The notes: generated by a model not told the origin, from the sequence alone. A stretch of 32,000 nucleotides of DNA from Nostoc mirabile CHAB5784 (GCF_020829645.1 NZ_JAIVFS010000053.1:18504-50503), one strand, 5' to 3'. Positions 3,747 through 26,798 are shown, counted from the first letter of the stretch. Made by a program: numbers and translations.

Positions 3747-5396
3747 ATGGCTCGTACTCCTACATTAAATTTTGATCGCGGCACATTAATTTTGCATCCA
3801 CCACCACGCGGCAAAGGTTGGATGGATTATGCTACGTGGGATGATAGAGTTGAAAAATTCCGCATTCCAGCAATTAGATACCGATCGCTAGTGGAAGCAC
3901 TACAAGCGGAAGATGTTTATTTTATCGATGAGGCAAAGCAATTTTATCCTGTAGATTTGGTTTCCAGTTTGGAAATGGAACCCTATCCCCACCAGACTGA
4001 GGCGCTAGCAGCTTGGAAACTGGCGGGTAGACAGGGGGTCGTCGTACTTCCGACGGCGGCGGGAAAGACTTATTTAGCGCAAATGGCGATGCAGTCAACG
4101 CCGCGCACGACGCTAATTGTGGTGCCAACTTTGGATTTGATGCATCAGTGGTATGCACACTTGGTAGCGGCTTTCCCCGATGCTGAGGTGGGATTGTTGG
4201 GGGGTGGTTCGCGGGATAGAACGGCAATTCTAGTTGCAACTTATGATAGTGCAGCAATTCACGCTGAGACGTTGGGAAATCAATATGCGTTGCTTGTTTT
4301 TGACGAATGTCATCATTTACCAACAGATTTTAATCGGGTGATTGCTGAATATGCGATCGCACCTTATCGCCTTGGACTCTCCGCTACACCAGAACGCACC
4401 GATGGTAAACACGCTGACTTAAATATCCTCATTGGTCAAGAAGTATATCGCAAACGCGCTGAAGATTTGGCGGGGAAGGCGTTAGCAGAACATGAAATTG
4501 TCCAAATTAAGGTAAAGTTATCGCAACTTGAGCGGGAAAGATACAATCAACTAATTCAAACTCGCAACGACTTTTTAAAGCAATCAAAGATTTCTTTAGG
4601 GAGTCTGCAAGGTTGGCAAATGTTCGTGCAAATGAGTGCTAGATCGCAATCTGGACGTAGGGCGATGTTAGCGCACCGAGAAGCCAAAGATATCGCTTTG
4701 GGTACTGATGGGAAGTTGCGAATTCTGATTGATTTATTGGCAGAACATTATCCGGCAAGAATTTTGATTTTTACTGCTGATAATGCGACGGTTTATCGCA
4801 TTTCTCAAGAGTTGCTAATTCCGGCAATTACTCATCAAACTCCTGTGAAGGAACGCCATGAGATATTAACAAAGTTTCGGGAGGGTAAATATAATACTTT
4901 GGTTGCTTCTCATGTGTTGAATGAAGGGGTTGATGTACCTGCGGCTTCTGTGGCGATTATTTTATCGGGGACGGGTTCGGCTAGGGAGTATACTCAGCGC
5001 TTGGGGAGGATTTTACGAAAGGGGAATATTGAGAATAAGCAGGCGATTTTGTATGAGGTGGTGGCGGAGGATACGAGTGAGGAGGGGACTTCGGCTAGGC
5101 GGAGAGGGGAGAGGAGAGACGAACCGCAGAGGCGCAAAGGACGCAGAGAGGAGGAGGAGAAGAGAGGGAAGTTACAGGTTGTGTATGGGAGTGGGAAGGA
5201 AAGGAGTTTGAAGGCTGCGGAACAGTTAGAAATTAATTATTCAGTCCAAAATCGTTCGACTGAGCAAAGCCGTTCGCGTAGCGTTCCGCAGGAAAGTCCA
5301 AAATCTAAAATCCAAAATTCAGCAGATGTTACCGACAGATTTACTGATGCATCGCCAAAACGGGGAGGAGATCATTCCGAAGAGACTGAAGATTGA
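3747..5396 (+). CDS. XPB/Rad25-like SF2 DNA helicase with a charged, low-complexity C-terminal tail
   Basis: Motif I is LPTAAGKT, motif II is FDECHH and motif III is SATPER. The C-terminal helicase lobe reads HQTPVKERHEILTKFREGKYNTLVASHVLNEGVDVP and TQRLGRILR. The N-terminus LNFDRGTLIL is typical of XPB-type damage-recognition domains. A DUF790 gene lies immediately downstream. Confidence 0.8.
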   Translation: MARTPTLNFDRGTLILHPPPRGKGWMDYATWDDRVEKFRIPAIRYRSLVEALQAEDVYFIDEAKQFYPVDLVSSLEMEPYPHQTEALAAWKLAGRQGVVVLPTAAGKTYLAQMAMQSTPRTTLIVVPTLDLMHQWYAHLVAAFPDAEVGLLGGGSRDRTAILVATYDSAAIHAETLGNQYALLVFDECHHLPTDFNRVIAEYAIAPYRLGLSATPERTDGKHADLNILIGQEVYRKRAEDLAGKALAEHEIVQIKVKLSQLERERYNQLIQTRNDFLKQSKISLGSLQGWQMFVQMSARSQSGRRAMLAHREAKDIALGTDGKLRILIDLLAEHYPARILIFTADNATVYRISQELLIPAITHQTPVKERHEILTKFREGKYNTLVASHVLNEGVDVPAASVAIILSGTGSAREYTQRLGRILRKGNIENKQAILYEVVAEDTSEEGTSARRRGERRDEPQRRKGRREEEEKRGKLQVVYGSGKERSLKAAEQLEINYSVQNRSTEQSRSRSVPQESPKSKIQNSADVTDRFTDASPKRGGDHSEETED

Positions 5397-6540
5397 TCAG
5401 AAAACTTCGGAGTTGGCGATTGAGTTAATTAATTATTTTCAATCAGCAGTGGGGAAGACTCAAGGTGTGCTTGAGCGACAATTGACTGATTTTGAAGGAG
5501 ATTCTACAGATTATCGGGTGAAGCGGGGATTAGCTTATATTCTCAAAAGCAGTTTTTGCACTTTTGAGGTGGTTAGTCCTTTGGAGCCACAGATGTTAAG
5601 AGAACGGGTGTTTTCGTTGGCTGCAAAGTCGGTTTCTAGTCGAGAATATACACAAGTTACTTTGAGTAAAATTGCTGATGAATTAACTCAAGAACTTGAG
5701 CGGGAAGTTTTATTAGAACAGGTTCGGAATGGACTCTATGCTGATTTATCTGAAAATAAAATTTTGACAGTGTTTGATGCACCAACAGCGCCAGATTTGT
5801 TAAATCGATATAACTTATCTCAGGTGCAGGGTGTATTTTATAAGGCCAGTCAATTGGTGTTAAATGCTCACCGAAATGTTCCGGGTGAATATAAGCTGTT
5901 ATTTCGCTATTTGAAGTTGTTTCAATTGATGGCTTATATTGAAGGTGATGCTGACCACGGGTTTACAATTACGATAGATGGGCCGACGAGTTTGTTTAAT
6001 CCTAGTACGCGATATGGGTTAGCGATCGCTAAACTTATTCCGGCTTTACTTCACGTTACTAAATGGAGTCTTTCGTCGATTCTCCAAACCCGCGATGCTT
6101 ATACAAATACTTGGAAAACTGGACGTTTTACTCTCAATTCCGAATGTGGTTTGGTATCCCATTATCCACCAGGTAAACCCTACGATAGTATGCTAGAAGC
6201 ATCCTTTGCTGATAAGTGGGATGCGTTGAAAAGTGGTTGGGCGTTAGAGCGAGAAGTTGATTTGATACCGATTCCTGGTAGCGTAATGATTCCTGATTTT
6301 CGCTTGGTGCATTCTGATGGACGTACTTTCTTGTTAGAAATTGTTGGTTATTGGCGACCAGAATATTTACAAAAGAAGTTTTCTCAGGTGCGGAAGGCTG
6401 GACGTGATGACTTGATTTTGGCTATTTCCGAGCGGCTTAATTTAGAAAAAGCGGGAGTAAAATTAAATGATGTCCCCGCGAGAATTGTTTGGTTTAAAGA
6501 TAAGTTATTGCCAAAAGCTGTGTTAGCTGTAATGGATTGA
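5326..6540 (+). CDS. DUF790 family nuclease (Bax1-like partner of XPB)
   Basis: 404 aa with the N-terminus MLPTDLLMHRQNGEEIIP. The C-terminal PD-(D/E)XK-like block is MIPDFRLVHSDGRTFLLEIVGYWRPEYLQKKF. Its start overlaps the helicase ORF by 71 nt. Confidence 0.75.
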   Translation: MLPTDLLMHRQNGEEIIPKRLKIDQKTSELAIELINYFQSAVGKTQGVLERQLTDFEGDSTDYRVKRGLAYILKSSFCTFEVVSPLEPQMLRERVFSLAAKSVSSREYTQVTLSKIADELTQELEREVLLEQVRNGLYADLSENKILTVFDAPTAPDLLNRYNLSQVQGVFYKASQLVLNAHRNVPGEYKLLFRYLKLFQLMAYIEGDADHGFTITIDGPTSLFNPSTRYGLAIAKLIPALLHVTKWSLSSILQTRDAYTNTWKTGRFTLNSECGLVSHYPPGKPYDSMLEASFADKWDALKSGWALEREVDLIPIPGSVMIPDFRLVHSDGRTFLLEIVGYWRPEYLQKKFSQVRKAGRDDLILAISERLNLEKAGVKLNDVPARIVWFKDKLLPKAVLAVMD

Positions 6541-6555
6541 TTAAGGATAAATGAG

Positions 6556-6798
6556 ATGAAAATTATAGAAACAATTGCCACAGTTACCAAAGATGGTAAT
6601 ATTACAGCCCAATTACCATTGGATATTCCAGAGGGTGAGCATCAGGTGGTGATAGTAATTGATGAAAAGCCTGTGGTAGAGAAACCAGAGAGCAAACAAA
6701 AGCGTCCTCCTCTAAACTTTCCTGTGCATAATTATGGGCCTTGGCCTGAAAATCTTTCTTTAAGACGTGAGGATATGTATGGTGATTGGGGGCGGTAA
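6556..6798 (+). CDS. Putative VapB-type antitoxin, copy 1 of 3
   Basis: 80-aa ORF (MKIIETIATVTKDGNITAQLPLDIPEGEHQVVIVIDEK...). It is about 90 percent identical in nucleotides to copy 3, which precedes an intact PIN gene. Confidence 0.6.
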   Translation: MKIIETIATVTKDGNITAQLPLDIPEGEHQVVIVIDEKPVVEKPESKQKRPPLNFPVHNYGPWPENLSLRREDMYGDWGR

Positions 6799-6877
6799 TC
6801 CTGTTTTTCTGGACACGAACATCTTAATGTATGCAAATGTGTCTGAATATCGCTTTTACCAAGTAGTGATGTATTAA
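6779..6877 (+). pseudogene. 5' stub of a PIN (VapC) toxin gene, 32 codons
   Basis: Reads MVIGGGNPVFLDTNILMYANVSEYRFYQVVMY*. It matches the first ~27 codons of the intact PIN gene at 7450, then breaks at the duplication junction CAAG/TAGTGATGTATTAATC. Confidence 0.7.
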
Positions 6878-6892
6878 TCTAATAGAAATACT

Positions 6893-7129
6893 ATGAAAAC
6901 TATAGAAACAATTGCCACAGTTACAAAAGATGGTAAAATTACAGCGCAGTTACCATTGGATATTCCAGAAGGTGAACATCAGGTGGTAATAGTAATTGAT
7001 GAAAAGCTTTTGACTGAAGAAACGGAGAAGAAAGAAAAGAAAGCACCTCTCAAATTTTCCGCCTATCCTGTAGGATTAGTCTCGGAAAGTTTAACTTTCC
7101 GCAGAGAAGACCTTTATGCAAACGACTAA
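6893..7129 (+). CDS. Putative VapB-type antitoxin, copy 2 of 3 (divergent C-terminal half)
   Basis: 78-aa ORF. The first 38 aa are nearly identical to copies 1 and 3, and the remainder (LLTEETEKKEKKAPLKFSAYPVGLVSESLTFRREDLYAND) diverges. Confidence 0.55.
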   Translation: MKTIETIATVTKDGKITAQLPLDIPEGEHQVVIVIDEKLLTEETEKKEKKAPLKFSAYPVGLVSESLTFRREDLYAND

Positions 7130-7211
7130 TAACCCTGTATTCATCGATACGAATATTTTAGTTTATGCAAATGTGTCCGAATCTCCCTTTCACCAAGTAG
7201 TGATGTATTAA
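7116..7211 (+). pseudogene. 5' stub of a PIN (VapC) toxin gene, 31 codons
   Basis: Reads MQTTNNPVFIDTNILVYANVSESPFHQVVMY*. It has the same junction sequence as the first stub. Confidence 0.7.
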
Positions 7212-7226
7212 TCTAATAGAAATAGT

Positions 7227-7469
7227 ATGAAAAGTATAGAAACAATTGCCACAGTTACCAAAGATGGTAAGATTACAGCGCAGTTACCATTGGATATTCC
7301 AGAGGGTGAGCATCAGGTGGTAATAGTAATTGATGAAAAGCCTTTAGTACAGAAAGCAGAGAGCAGGGAGAAACGTCCTCCTCTAAACTTTCCTGTAGAT
7401 AATTATGGTTATTGGCCTGAGAATCTTTCTCTAAGACGTGAGAATATGTATGGTGATTGGGGTCGCTAA
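7227..7469 (+). CDS. Putative VapB-type antitoxin, copy 3 of 3 (adjacent to the intact toxin)
   Basis: 80-aa ORF that overlaps the PIN gene start by 20 nt. Confidence 0.65.
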   Translation: MKSIETIATVTKDGKITAQLPLDIPEGEHQVVIVIDEKPLVQKAESREKRPPLNFPVDNYGYWPENLSLRRENMYGDWGR

Positions 7470-7902
7470 CTCTGTATTTCTGGACACGAACATCTTGGTG
7501 TATGCAAATGTGTCCGAATCTCCCTTTCACCAAGCAGCACTACAAGCTATTGAAAATCGTTATGACGCAGGAATTGAGTTATGGATTAGTCGCCAGGTGT
7601 TGCGGGAATTCTTGATGATTCTCAGTCGTCCACAAGCATTGATGAATCCCCGACCTGTTGCGATCATAATTGAGCGTACCCGATTTTTTCAAGCTCAATT
7701 TCGAGTAGCTGACGAAACCGCCCAAGTGACAGAAAGACTTTTATCTCTAATGGAGCAAATTGCTATTGGTGGGAAGCAAGTTCATGATGCAAATATTGTC
7801 GCCACGATGCTGGTTTATGGTATTCCTCAATTACTAACTCACAACACAGGTGATTTTGCAAGATTTTCTGGGTTAATTACTGTCTTGCCATTACAAGGTT
7901 AG
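7450..7902 (+). CDS. vapC: PIN-domain toxin (VapC family)
   Basis: Carries the FLDTNILVYA N-terminal acidic motif and HDANIVATM later. I prefer the ATG at 7450 (MVIGVANSVFLDTN) over the track start at 7438. Confidence 0.8.
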   Translation: MVIGVANSVFLDTNILVYANVSESPFHQAALQAIENRYDAGIELWISRQVLREFLMILSRPQALMNPRPVAIIIERTRFFQAQFRVADETAQVTERLLSLMEQIAIGGKQVHDANIVATMLVYGIPQLLTHNTGDFARFSGLITVLPLQG

Positions 7903-8125: not shown

Positions 8126-8815
8126 CTAACCCCAAACACTTCTGCGTTCCCAAAACTGGGCGACCCTTTTTTCCCATTGTTCCCAGTAATCTTTGATAAC
8201 TGCTGATTCAAACCAAAATACCTCAGCTGGCATTTCTGGAATCGCTACTACCAACAAAGCGTGCTTTAGCTGAATGCCATAATCTTGATAATACTCGTTA
8301 GCTGCTCCTATGTACGCCGTAAGTTGCAGTGGATGTTCATATAAATGCTCAATTGAGCCTTTGGGTTTATCTGCTGTTTTCCACTCGCAAATACAGGGAA
8401 TACCTTGATAGCTGGCAATACAATCAACTTTGCCAGAATAACCCAAATCATCATGAAAAACAGAGCCTTCCACTAGTCTAACTGTGTCGATTTGTTCTAA
8501 AACTGGCTTGATACTCTCCCAATAAGGGCGACTTGCTTCGGGACAAACAGGGTTTTGTCCAAGAAGGTAGCGCTCAATTTGCTTGTGTGTTTGGGTTCCC
8601 CGACGACTAGCAGATGTAGTAATACGGGTAGCTTCTTCTGTACCAACACGCGCTTTCCAGTTTAATAATCTGTCTCGGTCTGCTTGTGATTTGGTGGCAT
8701 TAAGTATTGTAGTAACGCTGGGAAAGCGATTTCCCTTGGCATCTACATAATATTGTTTACCATTTTCTCTCTTGGATGTGGCATTAATACGTGGTAGCAG
8801 TTGGGTATCATGCAT
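8126..8815 (-). CDS. PD-(D/E)XK superfamily nuclease (RecB/Cas4-like exonuclease fold)
   Basis: 229 aa. The block GKVDCIASYQGIPCICEWKT fits D-x(n)-E-x-K. The N-terminal block FPSVTTILNAT...RGTQTHKQIERYL is typical of this family. Confidence 0.6.
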   Translation of the reverse strand: MHDTQLLPRINATSKRENGKQYYVDAKGNRFPSVTTILNATKSQADRDRLLNWKARVGTEEATRITTSASRRGTQTHKQIERYLLGQNPVCPEASRPYWESIKPVLEQIDTVRLVEGSVFHDDLGYSGKVDCIASYQGIPCICEWKTADKPKGSIEHLYEHPLQLTAYIGAANEYYQDYGIQLKHALLVVAIPEMPAEVFWFESAVIKDYWEQWEKRVAQFWERRSVWG

Positions 8816-9650: not shown

Positions 9651-9840
9651 ACTATGACTTTAGCGTTAATAGATATAGTATGGCTTTAGTAAATGTATTT
9701 GTGAGATTTTACTCAAGAGAAAAACGCGATAAAACCCGCCTTCCAAGATAAATATTAAGAATTTTGTGTTATCTCTTCTCAGATGAGATGCACTAAAGTA
9801 AAATATCTCACAGTTTTATTTTGTAATTAATGGGTAAAAT

Positions 9841-10230
9841 ATGGAGCCTGTAACCCTGACAGCAGCTGCGATCGCAACCTTAGTGATTACAAAAGCTTTT
9901 GAGAAAACTGGCGAAATCCTGGGAGAAAAAGCTTTAGAGCAAGGTGGTAACTTATTATCATTGCTTAAGCGTAAAGAACCTACCACAGCGACAGCTATCG
10001 AACTAGCTCAAGCACAACCTTTAGATTATGGTCAAGCTTCTCTGGTTGAGCAGGTAGAAGAAGCTGCAAAGAAAGACCCTGAAATTGCTCAAGCTGTTAA
10101 GGATGTGGCGGATACTGTTAAATCTCAACCCTCTATCATCCAGAATTTTACGAACACAGTTGATAAAAATTATGGCGGGAATGTTGGGAACGTTTCTAAT
10201 GACAACCGCAATCAAACGTTTAATTTCTGA
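9841..10230 (+). CDS. 129-aa helical protein; probable detached N-terminal module of the downstream STAND NTPase
   Basis: It has a hydrophobic first helix (MEPVTLTAAAIATLVITKAF), amphipathic helices and an N/G-rich tail. It is in the same reading frame as the 10306 ORF, separated only by TGA (10228-10230) and 25 sense codons. Confidence 0.6.
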   Translation: MEPVTLTAAAIATLVITKAFEKTGEILGEKALEQGGNLLSLLKRKEPTTATAIELAQAQPLDYGQASLVEQVEEAAKKDPEIAQAVKDVADTVKSQPSIIQNFTNTVDKNYGGNVGNVSNDNRNQTFNF

Positions 10231-10305
10231 CTACAGTCGCCTGAACGGGAACGGGTAAAGTCAAATCCCTCTACTGAAACACCGCAAAATTTACCCCTGA
10301 GTGGG

Positions 10306-13251
10306 GTGGTGGAGTTTGTTGGACGTGAAGATGAATTGCAAATCCTGCATGAGATGTTGCAGGAAAATAATCAGGTGGTAATTGCTGCGATCGCTGGCAT
10401 GGGTGGACTGGGTAAAACAGAACTGGCCTTACAATATGCAATGGCTCACCGTGAAACTTACAAAGGTGGAATTTGCTGGTTGCTGGCAAAGGCTGGAGAT
10501 GTGGGTATTCAAATTGTGCAGTTTGCCAGAACTCAGCTTGATTTAAACCCACCAGAAGATTTTGATATACTCGCCCAAGTGCAATACTGCTTTCGGCTTT
10601 GGTGCGAGGGTAATGTGCTGCTAGTATTAGACGATGTTGGAGAATATCAACAAGTTAAGCCTTACCTACCTCCGCCATCTTCCCGGTTTAAAGTGTTGAT
10701 TACCACGCGGGAAAAATTACAGCCGCCGATAGTGCTATTACATTTAGATGTGCTGAAACCACTAGCGGCAATCAATTTATTAAAATCTTTGGTGGGTAGA
10801 AAACGACTGCAACATGAGCCTTGGATTGCTAGAAAACTTTGTAAGTGGCTGGGATATTTGCCCTTGGGTTTAGAATTAGTCGGGCGTTATTTGTTAGGTG
10901 ATGAGGAATTATCTCTAGCAGAAATGCTGCAAGACTTGGAAAATGAGCGTCTGACGAATGAATCTTTAGACGAAGCTCGACCAGAAATGACTGCTAAATT
11001 GGGTGTGGCTGCTGCTTTTGAGTTGAGTTGGCGACGTTTGCGAGAAAATGCCCAACTTTTAGGCTGTCTTCTGAGTTTATGTGCCCTAGCTCCGATTCCT
11101 TGGAAACTGGTGGAGGCTATAACAATAGCAGATGAAGCTCAAGATTGGAAAAAAGCCAGACGTGATTTGTTACAGTTACATCTACTCCAATATAAGGGTG
11201 AGAAAATCTACCAACTGCATCCATTGCTAAGGGAGTTTTTCCAATATAAGCTTACAGGTTTAGAACAGGCAGAGGAATTAAAGCGATCGCTTTGCGAGGT
11301 AATGGTAGCAGTTGCAAAAGAAATTTCTGAAAACGCTACCCTTAAGCAAATTACTGCTGTTTCCCCTGCCATTCCTCATATAGCTGAAGTAGCGACTCAT
11401 CTCATTCAATACGTCAGCGATGATGATTTACCTTGGCCTTTCGTCGGCAACGCTAAATTTTATAATGCTCAAGGTTTATATAACCAAGCTTTACCCTGGT
11501 TGGAACAATGTCTAGAAGTCACTAAAAAGCGCTTGGGTGAAGAACATCCATATGTCGCCTCTAGCCTCAGCTTCTTCGCGTTACTCTACCACTCCCAAGG
11601 CAGATACAGCGAAGCCGAACCCCTTTTCATCCAAGCATTGGCACTCAAGCGTCAACTGCTGGGTGAAGAACATCAAGATGTCGCCATTAGCCTCAACAAC
11701 CTAGCAGAACTCTACCGTTCCCAAGGCAGATACAGCGAAGCCGAACCCCTTTACATCCAAGCATTGGCACTCAGGCGTCAACTGCTGGGTGAAGAACATC
11801 AAGATGTCGCCATTAGCCTCAACAACCTAGCAGAACTCTACCGTTCCCAAGGCAGATACAGCGAAGCCGAACCCCTTTTCATCCAAGCATTGGCACTGAT
11901 GCGTCAACTGCTCGGAGATGAACATCCATCTGTCGCCACTAGCCTCAACAACTTAGCTAATCTCTACAACTCCCAAGGCAGATACAGCGAAGCCGAACCC
12001 CTTTTCATCCAAGCATTGGCACTCACGCGTCAACTGCTGGGTGAAGAACATCCAGATGTCGCCCAAAGCCTCAACAACCTTGCCTTACTCTACAACTCCC
12101 AAGGCAGATACAGCGAAGCCGAACCCCTTTTAATCCAAGCTTTGGCACTGATGCGTCAACTGCTGGGTGAAGAACATCCAGATGTCGCCCAAAGCCTCAA
12201 CAACCTAGCTTCTCTCTACAACTCCCAAGGCAGATACAGCGAAGCCGAACCCCTTTTCATCCAAGCATTGGCACTGATGCGTCAACTGCTGGGTGAAGAA
12301 CATCCATCTGTTGCCCAAAGCCTCAACAACCTAGCAGAACTCTACAACTTCCAAGGCAGATACAGTGAAGCCGAACCCTTTTACATCCAAGCATTGGCAC
12401 TCATGCGTCAACTGCTCGGAGATGAACATCCATCTGTCGCCCAAAGCCTCAACAACCTAGCTAATCTCTACAACTCCCAAGGCAAATACAGCGAAGCCGA
12501 ACCCCTTTACATCCAAGCTTTGGCACTCAGGCGTCAACTGCTCGGAGATGAACATCCATCTGTCGCCTCTAGCCTCAACAACCTAGCTTCTCTCTACTAC
12601 TCCCAAGGCAGATACAGCCAAGCCGAACCCCTTTTCATCCAAGCATTGGCACTGATGCGTCAACTGCTCGGAGATGAACATCCATCTGTCGCCTCTAGCC
12701 TCAACAACCTAGCTTATCTCTACTGTTCCCAAGGCAGATACAGCGAAGCCGAACCCCTTTTCATCCAAGCTTTAGCACTCTGGCGCAAACTGCTCGGAGA
12801 TGAACATCCATCTGTCGCCACTAGCCTCAACAACCTAGCGTCACTTTACTACTCCCAAGGCAGATACAGCGAAGCCGAACCCCTTTACATCCAAGCTTTG
12901 GCACTCAGGCGTCAACTGCTCGGAGATGAACATCCAGATGTCGCCTCTAGCCTCAACAACCTAGCGTTACTCTACGACTCCCAAGGCAGATACAGCGAAG
13001 CCGAACCCCTTTACATCCAAGCTTTGGCACTCATGCGTCAACTGCTCGGAGATGAACATCCATCTGTCGCCACTAGCCTCAACAACCTAGCTTCTCTGTA
13101 CTACTCCCAAGGCAGATACAGCGAAGCCGAACCCCTTTACATCCAAGCTTTGGATATTTTTGAGCGACAGTTAGGGTTGAATCATCCCAATACTATTAGT
13201 GTTCGTGAAAATTTAGCATATTTGCGCGATCGCCTCCCCCCACCACAGTAA
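10306..13251 (+). CDS. NB-ARC (STAND) NTPase with a C-terminal array of TPR repeats
   Basis: Walker A is GMGGLGKTELA, Walker B is LLVLDDV, and the LITTRE and GYLPLGLELV (GLPL-like) motifs are present. These are followed by 13 units of 42-aa TPR. There is no ATG start, and the open frame continues upstream to the TGA of the previous ORF. Confidence 0.85.
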   Translation: MVEFVGREDELQILHEMLQENNQVVIAAIAGMGGLGKTELALQYAMAHRETYKGGICWLLAKAGDVGIQIVQFARTQLDLNPPEDFDILAQVQYCFRLWCEGNVLLVLDDVGEYQQVKPYLPPPSSRFKVLITTREKLQPPIVLLHLDVLKPLAAINLLKSLVGRKRLQHEPWIARKLCKWLGYLPLGLELVGRYLLGDEELSLAEMLQDLENERLTNESLDEARPEMTAKLGVAAAFELSWRRLRENAQLLGCLLSLCALAPIPWKLVEAITIADEAQDWKKARRDLLQLHLLQYKGEKIYQLHPLLREFFQYKLTGLEQAEELKRSLCEVMVAVAKEISENATLKQITAVSPAIPHIAEVATHLIQYVSDDDLPWPFVGNAKFYNAQGLYNQALPWLEQCLEVTKKRLGEEHPYVASSLSFFALLYHSQGRYSEAEPLFIQALALKRQLLGEEHQDVAISLNNLAELYRSQGRYSEAEPLYIQALALRRQLLGEEHQDVAISLNNLAELYRSQGRYSEAEPLFIQALALMRQLLGDEHPSVATSLNNLANLYNSQGRYSEAEPLFIQALALTRQLLGEEHPDVAQSLNNLALLYNSQGRYSEAEPLLIQALALMRQLLGEEHPDVAQSLNNLASLYNSQGRYSEAEPLFIQALALMRQLLGEEHPSVAQSLNNLAELYNFQGRYSEAEPFYIQALALMRQLLGDEHPSVAQSLNNLANLYNSQGKYSEAEPLYIQALALRRQLLGDEHPSVASSLNNLASLYYSQGRYSQAEPLFIQALALMRQLLGDEHPSVASSLNNLAYLYCSQGRYSEAEPLFIQALALWRKLLGDEHPSVATSLNNLASLYYSQGRYSEAEPLYIQALALRRQLLGDEHPDVASSLNNLALLYDSQGRYSEAEPLYIQALALMRQLLGDEHPSVATSLNNLASLYYSQGRYSEAEPLYIQALDIFERQLGLNHPNTISVRENLAYLRDRLPPPQ
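11533..13170 (+). repeat. 13 tandem 126-bp coding repeats (42-aa TPR units) with very high internal identity
   Basis: The unit is LGEEHPDVAQSLNNLAxLYxSQGRYSEAEPLxIQALALxRQL, and adjacent units are near-identical at nucleotide level. Confidence 0.9.
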
Positions 13252-13420: not shown

Positions 13421-13932
13421 TTATATAGGCAATCGCCTTACTCGGAAAGTTTCATTACTTACAGAAATAATTGTCCCTAACTCTAAATCTTCCTGGCATT
13501 CACTCAAAACTTGAGTCAACCGTTCATTAATTGCATCATAATTTTCGTTCCCCAACCTAAACAAAATCACACTGGGTAAACTATCCCCACTCACGGCTAA
13601 AAGTTGGGCAAAATCTAAATCTATAGCACTTCTCTGTTGAGTACAATACAGACCTAACCCCCAACCCCTTCCCTACTAGCGTTGGGGAGTAAAATTCAAA
13701 GCCTCTCTCCTTTTAGGAGAGAGGAATGGAAGTGAGGTCAAAGTGTATTGCTTCCATTCGAGAACCGCTATATAGTTAATCAAATTCTTCCTTCTGCACG
13801 GGCTTTAATTAAAATCTCATTATCTGGTAGTCTTTGCAAACCTTCATCGCGCAAATGCACCACATCATAACCAGCACCACGCAACCAAGTTACAGTGCGT
13901 AGTGAAATTCCCATATCTGCCAAAAACTTCAT
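13421..13932 (-). pseudogene. DUF5615-type (Mut7-C/PIN-like) toxin gene, inactivated by a TGA codon and a MITE insertion
   Basis: The N-terminal fragment is MKFLADMGISLRTVTWLRGAGYDVVHLRDEGLQRLPDNEILIKARAEGRI-TGA-LTI. The C-terminal fragment is IDLDFAQLLAVSGDSLPSVILFRLGNENYDAINERLTQVLSECQEDLELGTIISVSNETFRVRRLPI*. The frames join exactly when 149 bp are removed. Confidence 0.8.
13627..13770. mobile_element. 144-bp MITE flanked by 5-bp target-site duplication TATAG
   Basis: TATAG occurs at 13622-13626 and 13771-13775. The ends are imperfect TIRs containing TTCTC...CAATACA. The interior has a G/C-rich hairpin (CTCTCTCCTTTTAGGAGAGAG). Confidence 0.7.
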
Positions 13933-13941
13933 TATTACTTG

Positions 13942-14214
13942 TTAAGCACTTTTGAAGGTATAAACCCGTTCTTGAGTCAACCACGCTGCATAAAGAAGAG
14001 ATTGACGAATATCTTCTGCTTCTAAATCAGGATATTCTTCTAAAATTTCTTCTATAGGCTTTCCATGAGCTACCAAATTTACCACTAAAGAAACTGGAAT
14101 TCGCATCCCGCGAATGCAAGCTTGTCCAGCCATAATGCTAGGGTCAAATGTAATTCTCTCCAGACCTAACATAAATGATCGCTCCAAAATCTTTTTTATC
14201 GTTCTGAGGTGCAA
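13942..14214 (-). CDS. DUF433-domain protein (putative antitoxin partner of DUF5615)
   Basis: Reads ITFDPSIMAGQACIRGMRIPVSLVVNLVAHGKPIEEILEEYPDLEAEDIRQSLLYAA. The likely true start is M15 (14172). It ends 9 nt before the DUF5615 ATG. Confidence 0.75.
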   Translation of the reverse strand: MHLRTIKKILERSFMLGLERITFDPSIMAGQACIRGMRIPVSLVVNLVAHGKPIEEILEEYPDLEAEDIRQSLLYAAWLTQERVYTFKSA

Positions 14215-14407: not shown

Positions 14408-14680
14408 TCAAAAGCAGCTTTTACTTTCTCAAAAGCAGCTTTTACTTTCCCTTTTTAGTGTTTTCCACAAGCAAAAGCAGCTTTTACTTCTTCAAAAGCA
14501 GCTTTTAATCTCGCATTTTAGTGTTTTCCACAAACAAAAGCAGCTTTTACTTCTTCAAAAGCAGCTTTTAATTTCGCATTTTAGTGTTTTCCACAAACAA
14601 AAGCAGCTTTTACTTCCTCATTTTGGTGTTTTCCGCAAGCAAAAGGAGCTTTTACTTTCTCAAACCCCAGTTTGCTTTCT
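14408..14680. repeat. Thirteen consecutive 21-bp units: palindrome-bearing type A and DnaA-box-like type B (iteron-like array)
   Basis: Type A is tCAAAAGCAGCTTTTACTTyy with the palindrome AAAAGC-A-GCTTTT. Type B is gCATTTTAGTGTTTTCCACAA. The order is A A B A A B A A B A B A x, and all spacings are multiples of 21 bp. Confidence 0.9.
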
Positions 14681-14835: not shown

Positions 14836-15225
14836 TTACTCAAATAAATCAAATCCCTTTTCGCTTCTCAACTTTCTGTCAAAAGTTGCTGTTGAACTAC
14901 AACCAGAATTTTGAGCAATTACACCAATTAAATAATCAGAAAAATCTGCACTTCCCTGCTGAAATCGCTGTAATGCTTGATAAACTATAGAACGATTTTC
15001 TAACTCAAATACAGAACATTGCAGCATCAAATCTATGGTGTTACTAATTTCTTCACTACTAAATTGATAAGGGTTCCCGCGCAAAACCCAGACTAATTCA
15101 CAGAGAACTATATTAGCAACAAAACATTGCTCTCCCCTTTCGATAATTTCCGCAGCTTGCTTCCACTGCTTTTCATCATCTTTTGTCAGGTAACGCACTA
15201 AAATATTTGTATCAAGTCCAATCAC
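14836..15225 (-). CDS. vapC: PIN-domain toxin (VapC family)
   Basis: The N-terminus is MIGLDTNILVRYL and the protein is 129 aa. It overlaps the upstream AbrB-type antitoxin gene by 14 nt. Confidence 0.85.
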   Translation of the reverse strand: MIGLDTNILVRYLTKDDEKQWKQAAEIIERGEQCFVANIVLCELVWVLRGNPYQFSSEEISNTIDLMLQCSVFELENRSIVYQALQRFQQGSADFSDYLIGVIAQNSGCSSTATFDRKLRSEKGFDLFE

Positions 15226-15457
15226 TTGAACCTTCTTGGATTGCTGCTTCCATTTCTTCTAAAGTTGCGCTTTTCATCCCCGGACGGTGTAAAATCCCCG
15301 ATAAGCTTTGGATGGGGATATTTAGGGGAATCAGTTTAACTGTTCCATTTTCATCAATGACAAAATCAACCTTACTACCTGGATCAAGGTTAAGATAATC
15401 CCTAATTTCTTGAGGAATAGTTATTTGTCCTTTACTGGTGATGGTCGCACTAGCCAT
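15212..15457 (-). CDS. vapB: AbrB/SpoVT/MazE-fold antitoxin (VapB)
   Basis: Reads MASATITSKGQITIPQEIRDYLNLDPGSKVDFVIDENGTVKLIP, a looped-hinge-helix signature. Confidence 0.85.
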   Translation of the reverse strand: MASATITSKGQITIPQEIRDYLNLDPGSKVDFVIDENGTVKLIPLNIPIQSLSGILHRPGMKSATLEEMEAAIQEGSSDWT

Positions 15458-26723: not shown

Positions 26724-26735
26724 TGATTGGAATAA

Positions 26736-26798
26736 TGGGGAGTGGGGAGTGGGGAGTGGGGAGTGGGGAATAGGGAATGGGGAATGGGGAATGGGGGA
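26736..26798. repeat. STRR-type heptamer tract, 9 units (TGGGGAG x4, TGGGGAA/TAGGGAA x4, TGGGGGA)
   Basis: Direct reading. It is the complement of the CCCCA-type heptamers at 3697-3745. Confidence 0.9.

Follow-up and report, generated by a model that had tools for sequence, protein, structure and literature searches.

Bell domains, bacterial amyloid signalling sequence (BASS) motifs and the pairing of Bell proteins with NOD-like receptors (NLRs) are already known. Two-gene Bell/BASS–NLR amyloid signalling pairs were described by Dyrka et al. (2020, bioRxiv 10.1101/2020.01.06.895854), and Bab/Agp of Escherichia coli provides a functional Bell/BASS example (Ibarlosa et al. 2024, bioRxiv 10.1101/2024.11.07.622273). 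In the Bell/BASS literature the motif on the effector is C-terminal, approximately 20–25 amino acids (aa) long, rich in G, N, Q, V and I, and prone to β-structure. Here we describe a locus related to these systems in a 32,000-nucleotide (nt) stretch of DNA from Nostoc mirabile CHAB5784 (the window, with positions counted along its full length), where a Bell effector gene and an NLR gene share one reading frame that is broken by a single TGA codon. We consider it probable that this codon is a site of programmed UGA readthrough, which would yield abundant free Bell-BASS effector together with a rare Bell-BASS-NLR sensor capable of seeding it.

The locus resembles the two-gene pairs in its helical Bell domain of approximately 100 aa with a MEPIS-type helix, its G/N/Q-rich tail of approximately 25 aa, the adjacent and collinear NB-ARC/TPR NLR gene, and its occurrence in filamentous cyanobacteria. 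It differs from them in that no second copy of the motif is present at the N-terminus of the NLR, and in that the NLR continues in frame past a UGA-C stop and an RNA element. If the stop were read through, executioner, switch and sensor would lie on one chain, as in the all-in-one Bell-NLR (or HeLo/coiled-coil-NLR) proteins. Unlike in those proteins, the open reading frame (ORF) is interrupted and the TGA is invariant, and the fusion would still carry an amyloid motif, for which all-in-one proteins have no need. The activation proposed here, in which an amyloid fold nucleated by an NLR activates a membrane-targeting helical executioner, follows the logic of the fungal HET-S/NWD2 and HELLP/PNT1 systems, although in those systems executioner and NLR are encoded by separate genes that each have a motif copy, and no recoding is involved.

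Readthrough stimulated by a pseudoknot is likewise known, from eukaryotic viruses. The murine leukaemia virus (MuLV) gag-pol signal combines an 8-nt spacer with a compact pseudoknot, and the type II contexts are UGA-CUA and UGA-CGG (PMC3159437). The Nostoc junction shares with such viral signals the UGA-CUA context, the 8-nt spacer and a proposed compact H-type pseudoknot with an A-rich third loop; conservation at synonymous sites 3′ of the stop is unusually high, and the larger ‘enzyme’ part would belong to the minor, extended product. It differs from the viral signals in lying on a bacterial chromosome that is served by 70S ribosomes and release factor 2 (RF2), in its stems of 4+4 bp, and in having one sub-class of loci without half of the structure. 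Bacterial use of weak UGA codons is exemplified by the coat/A1 readthrough of Qβ and by the autoregulation of RF2 (prfB) at a weak UGA-C. As in both of these cases, a weak UGA context at the Nostoc junction would give a minor extended or alternative product. Qβ, however, is viral and has no known stimulatory pseudoknot, whereas the gene described here is cellular; and prfB relies on a +1 frameshift with an upstream Shine–Dalgarno (SD) sequence, whereas the frame is unchanged here.

The Bell and NLR reading frames

The features of the locus are as follows.

9776–9804, + strand: promoter-like site TTCTCA-17-TAAAAT, which matches the consensus only weakly; approximately 37 nt separate it from the downstream ATG
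9841–10230, + strand: Bell-BASS effector ORF, 129 aa, UGA stop included in the coordinates; WP_229497764.1, Nostoc sp. CHAB 5784 / N. mirabile
9841–10143, + strand: Bell domain; hydrophobic N-terminal helix with MEPIS-type motif (MEPVTLTAAAIATLVITKAFEKTGE), then amphipathic helices
10144–10227, + strand: C-terminal G/N/Q-rich tail (NFTNTVDKNYGGNVGNVSNDNRNQTFNF), BASS-type amyloid signalling motif; predicted to be disordered in the monomer
10228–10231, + strand: UGA stop with C at +4, in a CUA codon; proposed readthrough site; TGA invariant, C in 60/61 in-frame loci
10231–13251, + strand: proposed readthrough extension, the NLR, with NB-ARC and TPR; 1006 codons from the stop, 981 from GTG 10306
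10270–10305, + strand: linker codons (…TETPQNLPLSG); amino-acid-level coding signature from approximately 10291, upstream of every candidate start in the window
10327–10959, + strand: NB-ARC NTPase domain (PF00931, E=1e-14, residues 33–243 of the 1006-aa translation)
10396–10419, + strand: P-loop GMGGLGKT, inside the NB-ARC domain
11542–13153, + strand: TPR sensor array, built from 12.8 copies of a 126-bp unit (90% matches)

The small ORF extends from ATG 9841 to TGA 10228–10230 and encodes 129 aa; base 10231 is C. A preliminary description of this DNA had placed both ORFs in one frame, with this TGA as the only break and 25 open codons behind it, and the sequence bears this out: the sole interruption is the TGA-C at 10228–10231, and the 25 codons at 10231–10305 (LQSPERERVKSNPSTETPQNLPLSG) are open and in frame with GTG 10306 and GTG 10309. 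The ORF from GTG 10306 encodes 981 aa and ends at 13251. The NLR gene is collinear with the Bell gene on the same strand and closely linked to it, with 75 nt from the TGA to GTG 10306. A sequence scan between the two ORFs returned no promoter-like or terminator-like match, which is consistent with a single transcript; the mRNA probably starts at the promoter-like site at 9776–9804.

We assign the 129-aa protein to the Bell-domain effectors of cell death, as indicated by its MEPIS-type helix, its predicted helical bundle with a disordered tail, and its membership of a family that includes RCJ33357.1. The N-terminus reads MEPVTLTAAAIATLV… and forms a hydrophobic helix of the MEPIS type, a hallmark of executioner domains of the Bell/Hell/HeLo-like kind (Ibarlosa et al. 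2024, bioRxiv 10.1101/2024.11.07.622273). The AlphaFold2 model (predicted local distance difference test score, pLDDT, 68) contains seven helices, arranged as a bundle with a disordered tail. The corresponding protein of one related locus (L043) is 63% identical to the window protein and is identical to RCJ33357.1, the Nostoc punctiforme (‘Nosto’) Bell exemplar in Figure 1C of Dyrka et al. (2020, bioRxiv 10.1101/2020.01.06.895854). The N-terminal helical executioner-like module of the preliminary description, a hydrophobic first helix followed by amphipathic helices, is therefore a member of the Bell family, which has been reported both with NLRs as partners and in all-in-one fusions (Dyrka et al. 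2020). The effector, which had been called uncharacterised, is of a known kind: a Bell domain with a BASS amyloid tail. Pfam, NCBIfam and PADLOC assigned the 129-aa protein to no significant family, PADLOC giving insignificant ZorA hits only.

We found 300 homologues of the 129-aa protein, and statements on their length and architecture rest on the best 120, all of which are standalone proteins of 102–163 aa from Nostocales. Across the aligned family the Bell domain is conserved, whereas the C-terminal G/N/Q-rich tail varies and mostly ends in …F-N-F; the tail of the window protein is NYGGNVGNVSNDNRNQTFNF. We call the tail BASS-type because its position and composition match those of BASS amyloid signalling motifs, and it would be expected to form amyloid. 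Rare long relatives within this Bell subfamily are P0371 (700 aa), with a Bell domain and HEAT-like repeats, and P0363 (412 aa), in which an N/G-rich segment, a transmembrane (TM) helix and a C-terminal domain follow the Bell domain. Uninterrupted Bell fusions therefore occur, though not with this NB-ARC.

In the downstream protein the NB-ARC domain is followed by 14 TPR_12 units (Pfam), which makes it a STAND NTPase of the NB-ARC clade with a TPR sensor. Its match to the NCBIfam family FxSxx_TPR (447 bits) reflects the common NB-ARC/TPR architecture; an FxSxx-COOH system of ribosomally synthesized and post-translationally modified peptides was rejected on this ground and because the window contains no radical-SAM partner gene. 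PADLOC found no match to Avs or other catalogued defence systems; its output for the NLR consisted of a TPR hit of a generic kind and some weak PDC candidates.

Conservation of the stop codon, frame and RNA element

We scanned one genome per species and obtained 80 loci with a homologue of the small ORF, 77 of them intact. A locus was counted as in-frame when the TGA was followed immediately by an in-frame ORF of at least 200 aa or one that reached the contig end. This arrangement, far too frequent to be due to chance, is present in 61 of the 77 intact loci (TGA-C in 60, TGA-A in one), from Nostoc, Komarekiella, Calothrix, Aulosira, Aerosakkonema, Floridaenema, Microcoleus and Lyngbya. In a further six the in-frame ORF behind the TGA is shorter, with an appearance of degeneration in some; ten end in TAA or TAG. 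The UGA-C to which the preliminary description had drawn attention as a weak-context stop is thus kept in almost every in-frame locus, and in these the codon next to UGA is CUA or CUG. Orthologous loci revealed no two-gene layout with an SD-preceded start and a non-homologous spacer; TGA-C, frame and a homologous open spacer are all retained.

No sense codon is found at the stop position among the 77 intact loci or among 18 elements from metagenomes. The latter were retrieved from metagenome contigs with a pattern of the downstream element that left out the stop and spanned most of both stems; two of the 20 hits were unrelated chance matches, and a TGA lies immediately 5′ of the element in all 18 genuine ones, whose Bell-like ORFs are 30–51% identical to the window protein. 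A query composed of Bell, W and the NLR N-terminus found no sense-codon fusion in 5.8 billion proteins. Hits with 75–81% coverage of this artificial fusion were rejected as EAD4-NB-ARC paralogues with a spurious N-terminal alignment to Bell. Since none of these sequences has a sense codon in place of the stop, the free effector is evidently required.

The distance between TGA and P-loop takes seven values (48, 49, 50, 51, 52, 53 and 55 codons), and the spacer, which contains no stop, differs in length by whole codons only. A single kind of TGA-C junction stands, always in frame, ahead of at least seven different downstream proteins. These are NB-ARC/TPR proteins, a P-loop NTPase of approximately 1200 aa (Microcoleus, Lyngbya), a NACHT-like/WD40 protein, a divergent NB-ARC protein, two TM-containing proteins, a small ORF of 124–133 aa, and another P-loop protein (L100). 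The junction of the Microcoleus/Lyngbya loci (L066, L074, L075, L086, L093 and L094) leads in frame into the approximately 1200-aa protein, which has a GASGQGKT P-loop. The Floridaenema junction (L027:6415–6480) retains TGA CTA CAG TCG only and is followed in frame by the NACHT-like/WD40 protein, whose N-terminus bears a G-rich motif (VLGGIVVYVSGGQAIFG) unlike the Bell tail. Across NB-ARC loci in which it ends within the contig, the in-frame ORF after the TGA ranges from 380 to 1053 aa (L016, L031), which suggests rapid expansion and contraction of the TPR repeats.

Stop type, frame and NLR motif co-vary without exception in the sample. In all ten TAA/TAG loci the NLR is out of frame with Bell, either overlapping it or beginning a few dozen nt downstream, and its N-terminus repeats the Bell tail in the manner of a classical two-gene Bell/BASS-NLR system. 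Two such loci read as follows.

L079: Bell tail TTIENWKGINIKGGNSTINNPNFNF; NLR start MTTENWNGINIKGGNPVINISQ
L020: Bell tail KLAEKIGIVVQGGTVNIEKLSL; NLR N-terminus KMAEKIGVVNYGKTNIGTLIVG

In the window and all 61 TGA loci, the NLR's N-terminal region reads LQSPERER…NLPLSG and contains no copy of the motif. The motif on the NLR side would be dispensable only in the TGA loci because the readthrough fusion would carry the BASS segment of Bell itself.

The DNA downstream of the stop is conserved to an unusual degree, with the consensus UGA CUA CAG UCG CCY GAA SGG GAA CGG GUA AAG UYA AAU CCC. Against three loci found through protein similarity (L033, L070 and L066), the 42 nt from the TGA show 74–98% nucleotide identity, compared with 55–67% in the flanks; a range of 88–98% was also obtained for the approximately 40 nt behind the UGA. 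Mean column entropies by codon position, calculated from the 36 loci with a 28-codon spacer, are given below.

Spacer codons 1–20: position 1, 0.27; position 2, 0.33; position 3, 0.22
Spacer codons 21–28: position 1, 0.23; position 2, 0.13; position 3, 0.67
NB-ARC: position 1, 0.27; position 2, 0.11; position 3, 0.72

The flat profile over the first approximately 60 nt indicates that this segment is conserved as nucleotides, not as codons. As judged from the alignment, the element fits a compact H-type pseudoknot that starts 8 nt after the stop, with the following predicted parts.

10239–10269, + strand: proposed H-type pseudoknot, from nucleotide conservation and covariation
10231–10238, + strand: spacer, CUACAGUC, 8 nt, from the alignment; spacing equal to that of the MuLV readthrough signal (PMC3159437)
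10239–10242 (GCCU) with 10253–10256 (GGGU), + strand: stem S1, consensus GCCY / RGGU
10243–10246, + strand: loop L1, GAAS
10247–10250 (GGGA) with 10266–10269 (UCCC), + strand: stem S2
10251–10252, + strand: loop L2, AC
10257–10265, + strand: loop L3 (AAAGUCAAA), consensus AAAGUYAAA

In this arrangement 88.5% of cells are paired, as against 23–58% when the partners are slid. Changes on both sides occur in six of the eight pairs, and none of 500 shuffles reached the observed covariation, a figure that is an upper bound on its significance. All eight pairs are formed by 42 of the 46 unique full-length elements. Among standard pairs, the inner S1 pair, Y33:R44, is C-G in 19, U-G in 11, U-A in 8 and G-C in 1. 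S1 is further compensated in L021 (GUCG/CGAC) and L028 (GUCC/GGAU), and in S2 AGGA always occurs with UCCU (L017, L018, L037) and GAGA with UCUC (L015). L047 retains both stems and a 9-nt L3 despite an unrelated L3 sequence, one extra L1 base and a different codon phase. The element has no match in Rfam.

Other structures and mechanisms were considered for the same bases. A hairpin that includes the stop codon (UGAC-NNNN-GUCG) is 85% paired but lacks covariation, the stop being fixed, and was set aside. A proximal CCY-GAAS-GGG hairpin is broken in several sequences that keep the distal pairing, and S1 was preferred to it. Frameshifting by −1 or +1 was rejected: there is no slippery heptamer, the −1 frame stops after five codons, and the ORFs are in frame anyway.

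A possible relic of the element's origin is seen in L079, where the linker of the TAA-type NLR (L079:3050–3085), between the BASS motif and NB-ARC, contains the 3′ half of the element, CAG TCT GAA CGG GCA AAG TTA AAT CCT CCA. This linker has a single GAACGG copy followed by GCAAAGTTAAATCCTCC and encodes S-E-R-A-K-L-N-P-P, and TGA-type loci have GAACGG-GAACGG plus CGCCC. Because the L079 linker holds the 3′ half with one GAACGG, the pseudoknot may, speculatively, have arisen by a short duplication in an ancestral BASS–NB-ARC linker.

Proposed readthrough and its alternatives

In the readthrough mechanism that we propose, most ribosomes would terminate at UGA-C (10228–10231) to give the free 129-aa Bell-BASS product, which would be a latent executioner directed at membranes, its tail able to form amyloid. 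A minority would decode UGA, most likely through a near-cognate tRNA such as tRNA-Trp, helped by the weak UGA-CUA context and by the proposed H-type pseudoknot 8 nt downstream. These ribosomes would go on to translate the linker and the NB-ARC/TPR region, producing a rare Bell-BASS-NB-ARC-TPR protein. Triggering of the TPR sensor by its ligand, together with oligomerisation of NB-ARC, would cluster the N-terminal BASS segments and nucleate an amyloid fold; this fold would template the pool of free Bell-BASS, leading to membrane attack (abortive infection or programmed cell death). Readthrough would thus replace the second, NLR-side copy of the motif in classical two-gene systems, would fix a low sensor-to-effector ratio, and would ensure that both partners carry an identical motif. 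Sequence comparison shows that the UGA, the frame, the open spacer and the RNA element are conserved, that the element covaries, that an NLR-side motif and a conserved start codon are missing, and that the small protein belongs to the Bell family; the occurrence and efficiency of readthrough, the amino acid inserted, amyloid formation by the tail and the killing of the cell are inferred. It is plausible that UGA-CUA, the 8-nt spacer and the compact pseudoknot constitute a dedicated cis-acting recoding signal for the effector stop in filamentous cyanobacteria.

Several points weigh against this proposal. To our knowledge, the precedents for readthrough stimulated by a pseudoknot or by UGA-CUA are eukaryotic. 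A large sub-class of loci with a 25-codon spacer (L030, L032, L034, L035, L038, L040–L043, L048, L052, L055, L056, L058 and L071, with the junction at approximately 6376 in most) has a 9-nt deletion that removes L3 and the 3′ strand of S2 (S2b) and has an altered 3′ strand of S1 (S1b), while TGA-C, the frame and the open spacer are kept; it includes the locus of the RCJ33357.1 exemplar, L043. RNAalifold applied to this class gave two small adjacent hairpins only and nothing convincing. The association between stop type and frame (Fisher p ~3e-12, from a 58-vs-10 table; the final TGA count is 61) overstates the independence of loci that are phylogenetically related, as do the shuffle statistics, and both are upper bounds on significance. 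In the metagenome set only the TGA, L3 and S2b are independent observations, the search pattern having covered most of both stems. On the protein side, Foldseek of the AlphaFold2 model (pLDDT 68) against the PDB found nothing with E<2, the plant Rx-CC ranking fourth without significance, and a PDB profile search with the 129-aa protein found designed coiled coils only and no link to Bab (9H9V, ‘Babybell’). Finally, 41 of 54 NB-ARC loci (76%) have a possible GTG/ATG just before FVGRE, after a weak G-rich SD-like stretch, and some Bell-less NLR may accordingly also be made by independent initiation.

This last observation is central to the most serious competing explanation, which we regard as unlikely: that two proteins are translated separately, with UGA always terminating and the NLR starting from GTG 10306/10309, from a TTG or by 70S re-initiation. 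The RNA element would then be a coupling or attenuation device that holds NLR synthesis low, and the shared frame inherited history. Bell/NLR pairs are indeed normally two genes, often overlapping or closely coupled, and programmed readthrough is very rare in bacteria. The window itself contains CCCC-UGAGU-GGGG at 10294–10311, a possible small hairpin directly 5′ of GTG GTG, in a stretch where the codons P-L-S-G are unusually conserved in their third positions, so that internal initiation of some Bell-less NLR near 10294–10311 is conceivable. The preliminary description had seen no obvious SD and no ATG ahead of the P-loop. A G-rich SD-like GAGUGGGG does sit just 5′ of the GTG pair, albeit a weak one, and there is an in-frame ATG at 10354–10356 (the M of LHEM), from which a start would remove the conserved FVGRE entry helix. 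Against separate initiation stands a survey of the start codons in the 54 NB-ARC loci of TGA type. Spacer codons 1–17 lack ATG, GTG and TTG in 53 of these, and the GTG/ATG pair used by annotation pipelines is missing in 13, six of which have no in-frame ATG, GTG or TTG anywhere before FVGR. Among 50 unique sequences the Val codon at the GTG pair is GTG in 32 and GTA in 17, as expected of free synonymous drift. Upstream of the candidate starts, NLPLSG also varies synonymously (Leu TTG/TTA/CTC, Leu CTG/TTG/CTA/TTA, Gly GGG/GGA/GGT), and selection at the amino-acid level is seen on these codons. With synonymous changes of GTG to GTA and of TTG to TTA/CTC occurring, no start codon is under selection. 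In paralogous NLRs with fused EAD4 or other N-terminal domains the NLPLS..FVGRE linker is internal. The closest NB-ARC paralogues (P0128, P0129, P0151 and others, up to 75% identical) carry effector-associated domains (PF19959 EAD4, PF19954, PF19955, PF19961), trypsin-like domains or other N-terminal domains in place of the Bell module, joined via this same linker. No NLR start codon is conserved; this, the amino-acid-level selection upstream and the whole-codon spacers together suggest that translation comes through the UGA. Re-initiation needs neither a shared frame, nor an open spacer, nor whole-codon length differences, yet all three are kept ahead of the various downstream types. A separately initiated NLR would, moreover, lack the BASS motif needed for signalling to its Bell partner, whereas every TAA/TAG relative has one.

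The remaining explanations are less probable still. The stretch of approximately 40 nt could be a DNA-level recombination junction that shuffles Bell-BASS cassettes onto different NLR genes, its frame and sequence being conserved through gene conversion and common descent. Near-identical junction DNA does join very different Bell tails to different downstream proteins, and the flanks are far more divergent than the junction; such shuffling is also compatible with readthrough. We nevertheless consider it improbable as the explanation, since compensatory changes maintain two helices, L047 keeps these helices while its loop sequence and frame differ, and the invariant TGA-C, the invariant frame and the missing NLR-side motif would be left unexplained. 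Complete recoding of UGA by selenocysteine or a dedicated suppressor tRNA, with the fusion as the only product, would fit an in-frame UGA followed by a conserved RNA structure, but is very improbable. The element is a small pseudoknot without an Rfam match and not a hairpin of the selenocysteine insertion sequence type; no homologue has Cys or another sense codon at the UGA position, unlike typical selenoproteins; a tRNA scan found no tRNA gene in the window; and a linker position offers no redox role. Selenocysteine in particular was rejected as unlikely, given the lack of an Rfam match and a report that the selenocysteine trait is not detected in Cyanobacteria (PMC1794560), the present genomes themselves not having been scanned for selA, selB or tRNA-Sec. 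That the stop is a nonsense mutation of recent date, which had been offered in the preliminary description, or a sequencing error, or that the locus is an all-in-one Bell-NLR decaying into a pseudogene, is refuted. A single sequence would give that appearance, and five loci are clearly degenerate (L053, L069, L072, L078 and L091), but TGA-C recurs in 60 independent assemblies, TGA-A in one more and TGA in 18 metagenome contigs, and the ORFs on either side of the stop are intact and show purifying selection.

Neighbouring genes and significance

Other features lie on either side of the locus. A 334-bp tandem repeat at 6556–7534 (2.9 copies, 75% identity), in which a small antitoxin-like ORF occurs in duplicate (6893–7129 and 7227–7469), is directly upstream of a PIN/VapC gene at 7438–7902. 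At 3747–6540 a gene for an XPB-like helicase (XPB_DRD, ResIII and Helicase_C) overlaps a DUF790 gene (E=2e-155), and the two look like an XPB-Bax1-like helicase/nuclease pair. Near the locus there are also a PD-(D/E)XK nuclease gene (8126–8815, − strand) and toxin–antitoxin-like genes, comprising a PIN gene (14836–15225, − strand) with an AbrB-like partner (15212–15457, − strand) and small ORF pairs at 13780–14214 (− strand). A 63-bp repeat is present in 3.4 copies at 14409–14620. Further away, the heptamer AATGGGG is repeated nine times at 26734–26796, in an intergenic region downstream of a gene for a fusion of orotidine monophosphate decarboxylase and phosphoribosyltransferase.

A conserved in-frame UGA-C with a 3′ pseudoknot that joins a bacterial executioner to an NLR appears to be unreported. 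Readthrough, stop codons and an in-frame arrangement are not mentioned in bioRxiv 10.1101/2020.01.06.895854 or bioRxiv 10.1101/2024.11.07.622273, RCJ33357 was not found in the supplementary tables consulted, and a search of full-text literature gave no link between bacterial readthrough and amyloid signalling, Bell or NLRs. If our reading is correct, no earlier case of programmed readthrough stimulated by a structure would be on record for a chromosomal gene of bacteria. The case would, moreover, be a clear, widespread and phylogenetically conserved one with a 3′ pseudoknot, a type of signal that has so far been essentially eukaryotic-viral. The element, at approximately 42 nt, is portable. 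Current annotation pipelines place the NLR start at an arbitrary GTG and leave the Bell gene as ‘hypothetical’.

For the Bell family, Dyrka et al. counted 346 matched gene pairs as against 1816 non-redundant Bell C-termini (2020, bioRxiv 10.1101/2020.01.06.895854). Readthrough, if true, would explain how coupling to a sensor is achieved by the many cyanobacterial Bell proteins that lie beside an NLR without a matching motif. A single copy of the motif would be shared between the partners through recoding, with no need for two copies to co-evolve, and the ratio of sensor to effector would be set by translation. The arrangement would then represent a third architecture for NLR signalling, between the ‘two-gene amyloid’ and the ‘all-in-one’ designs.

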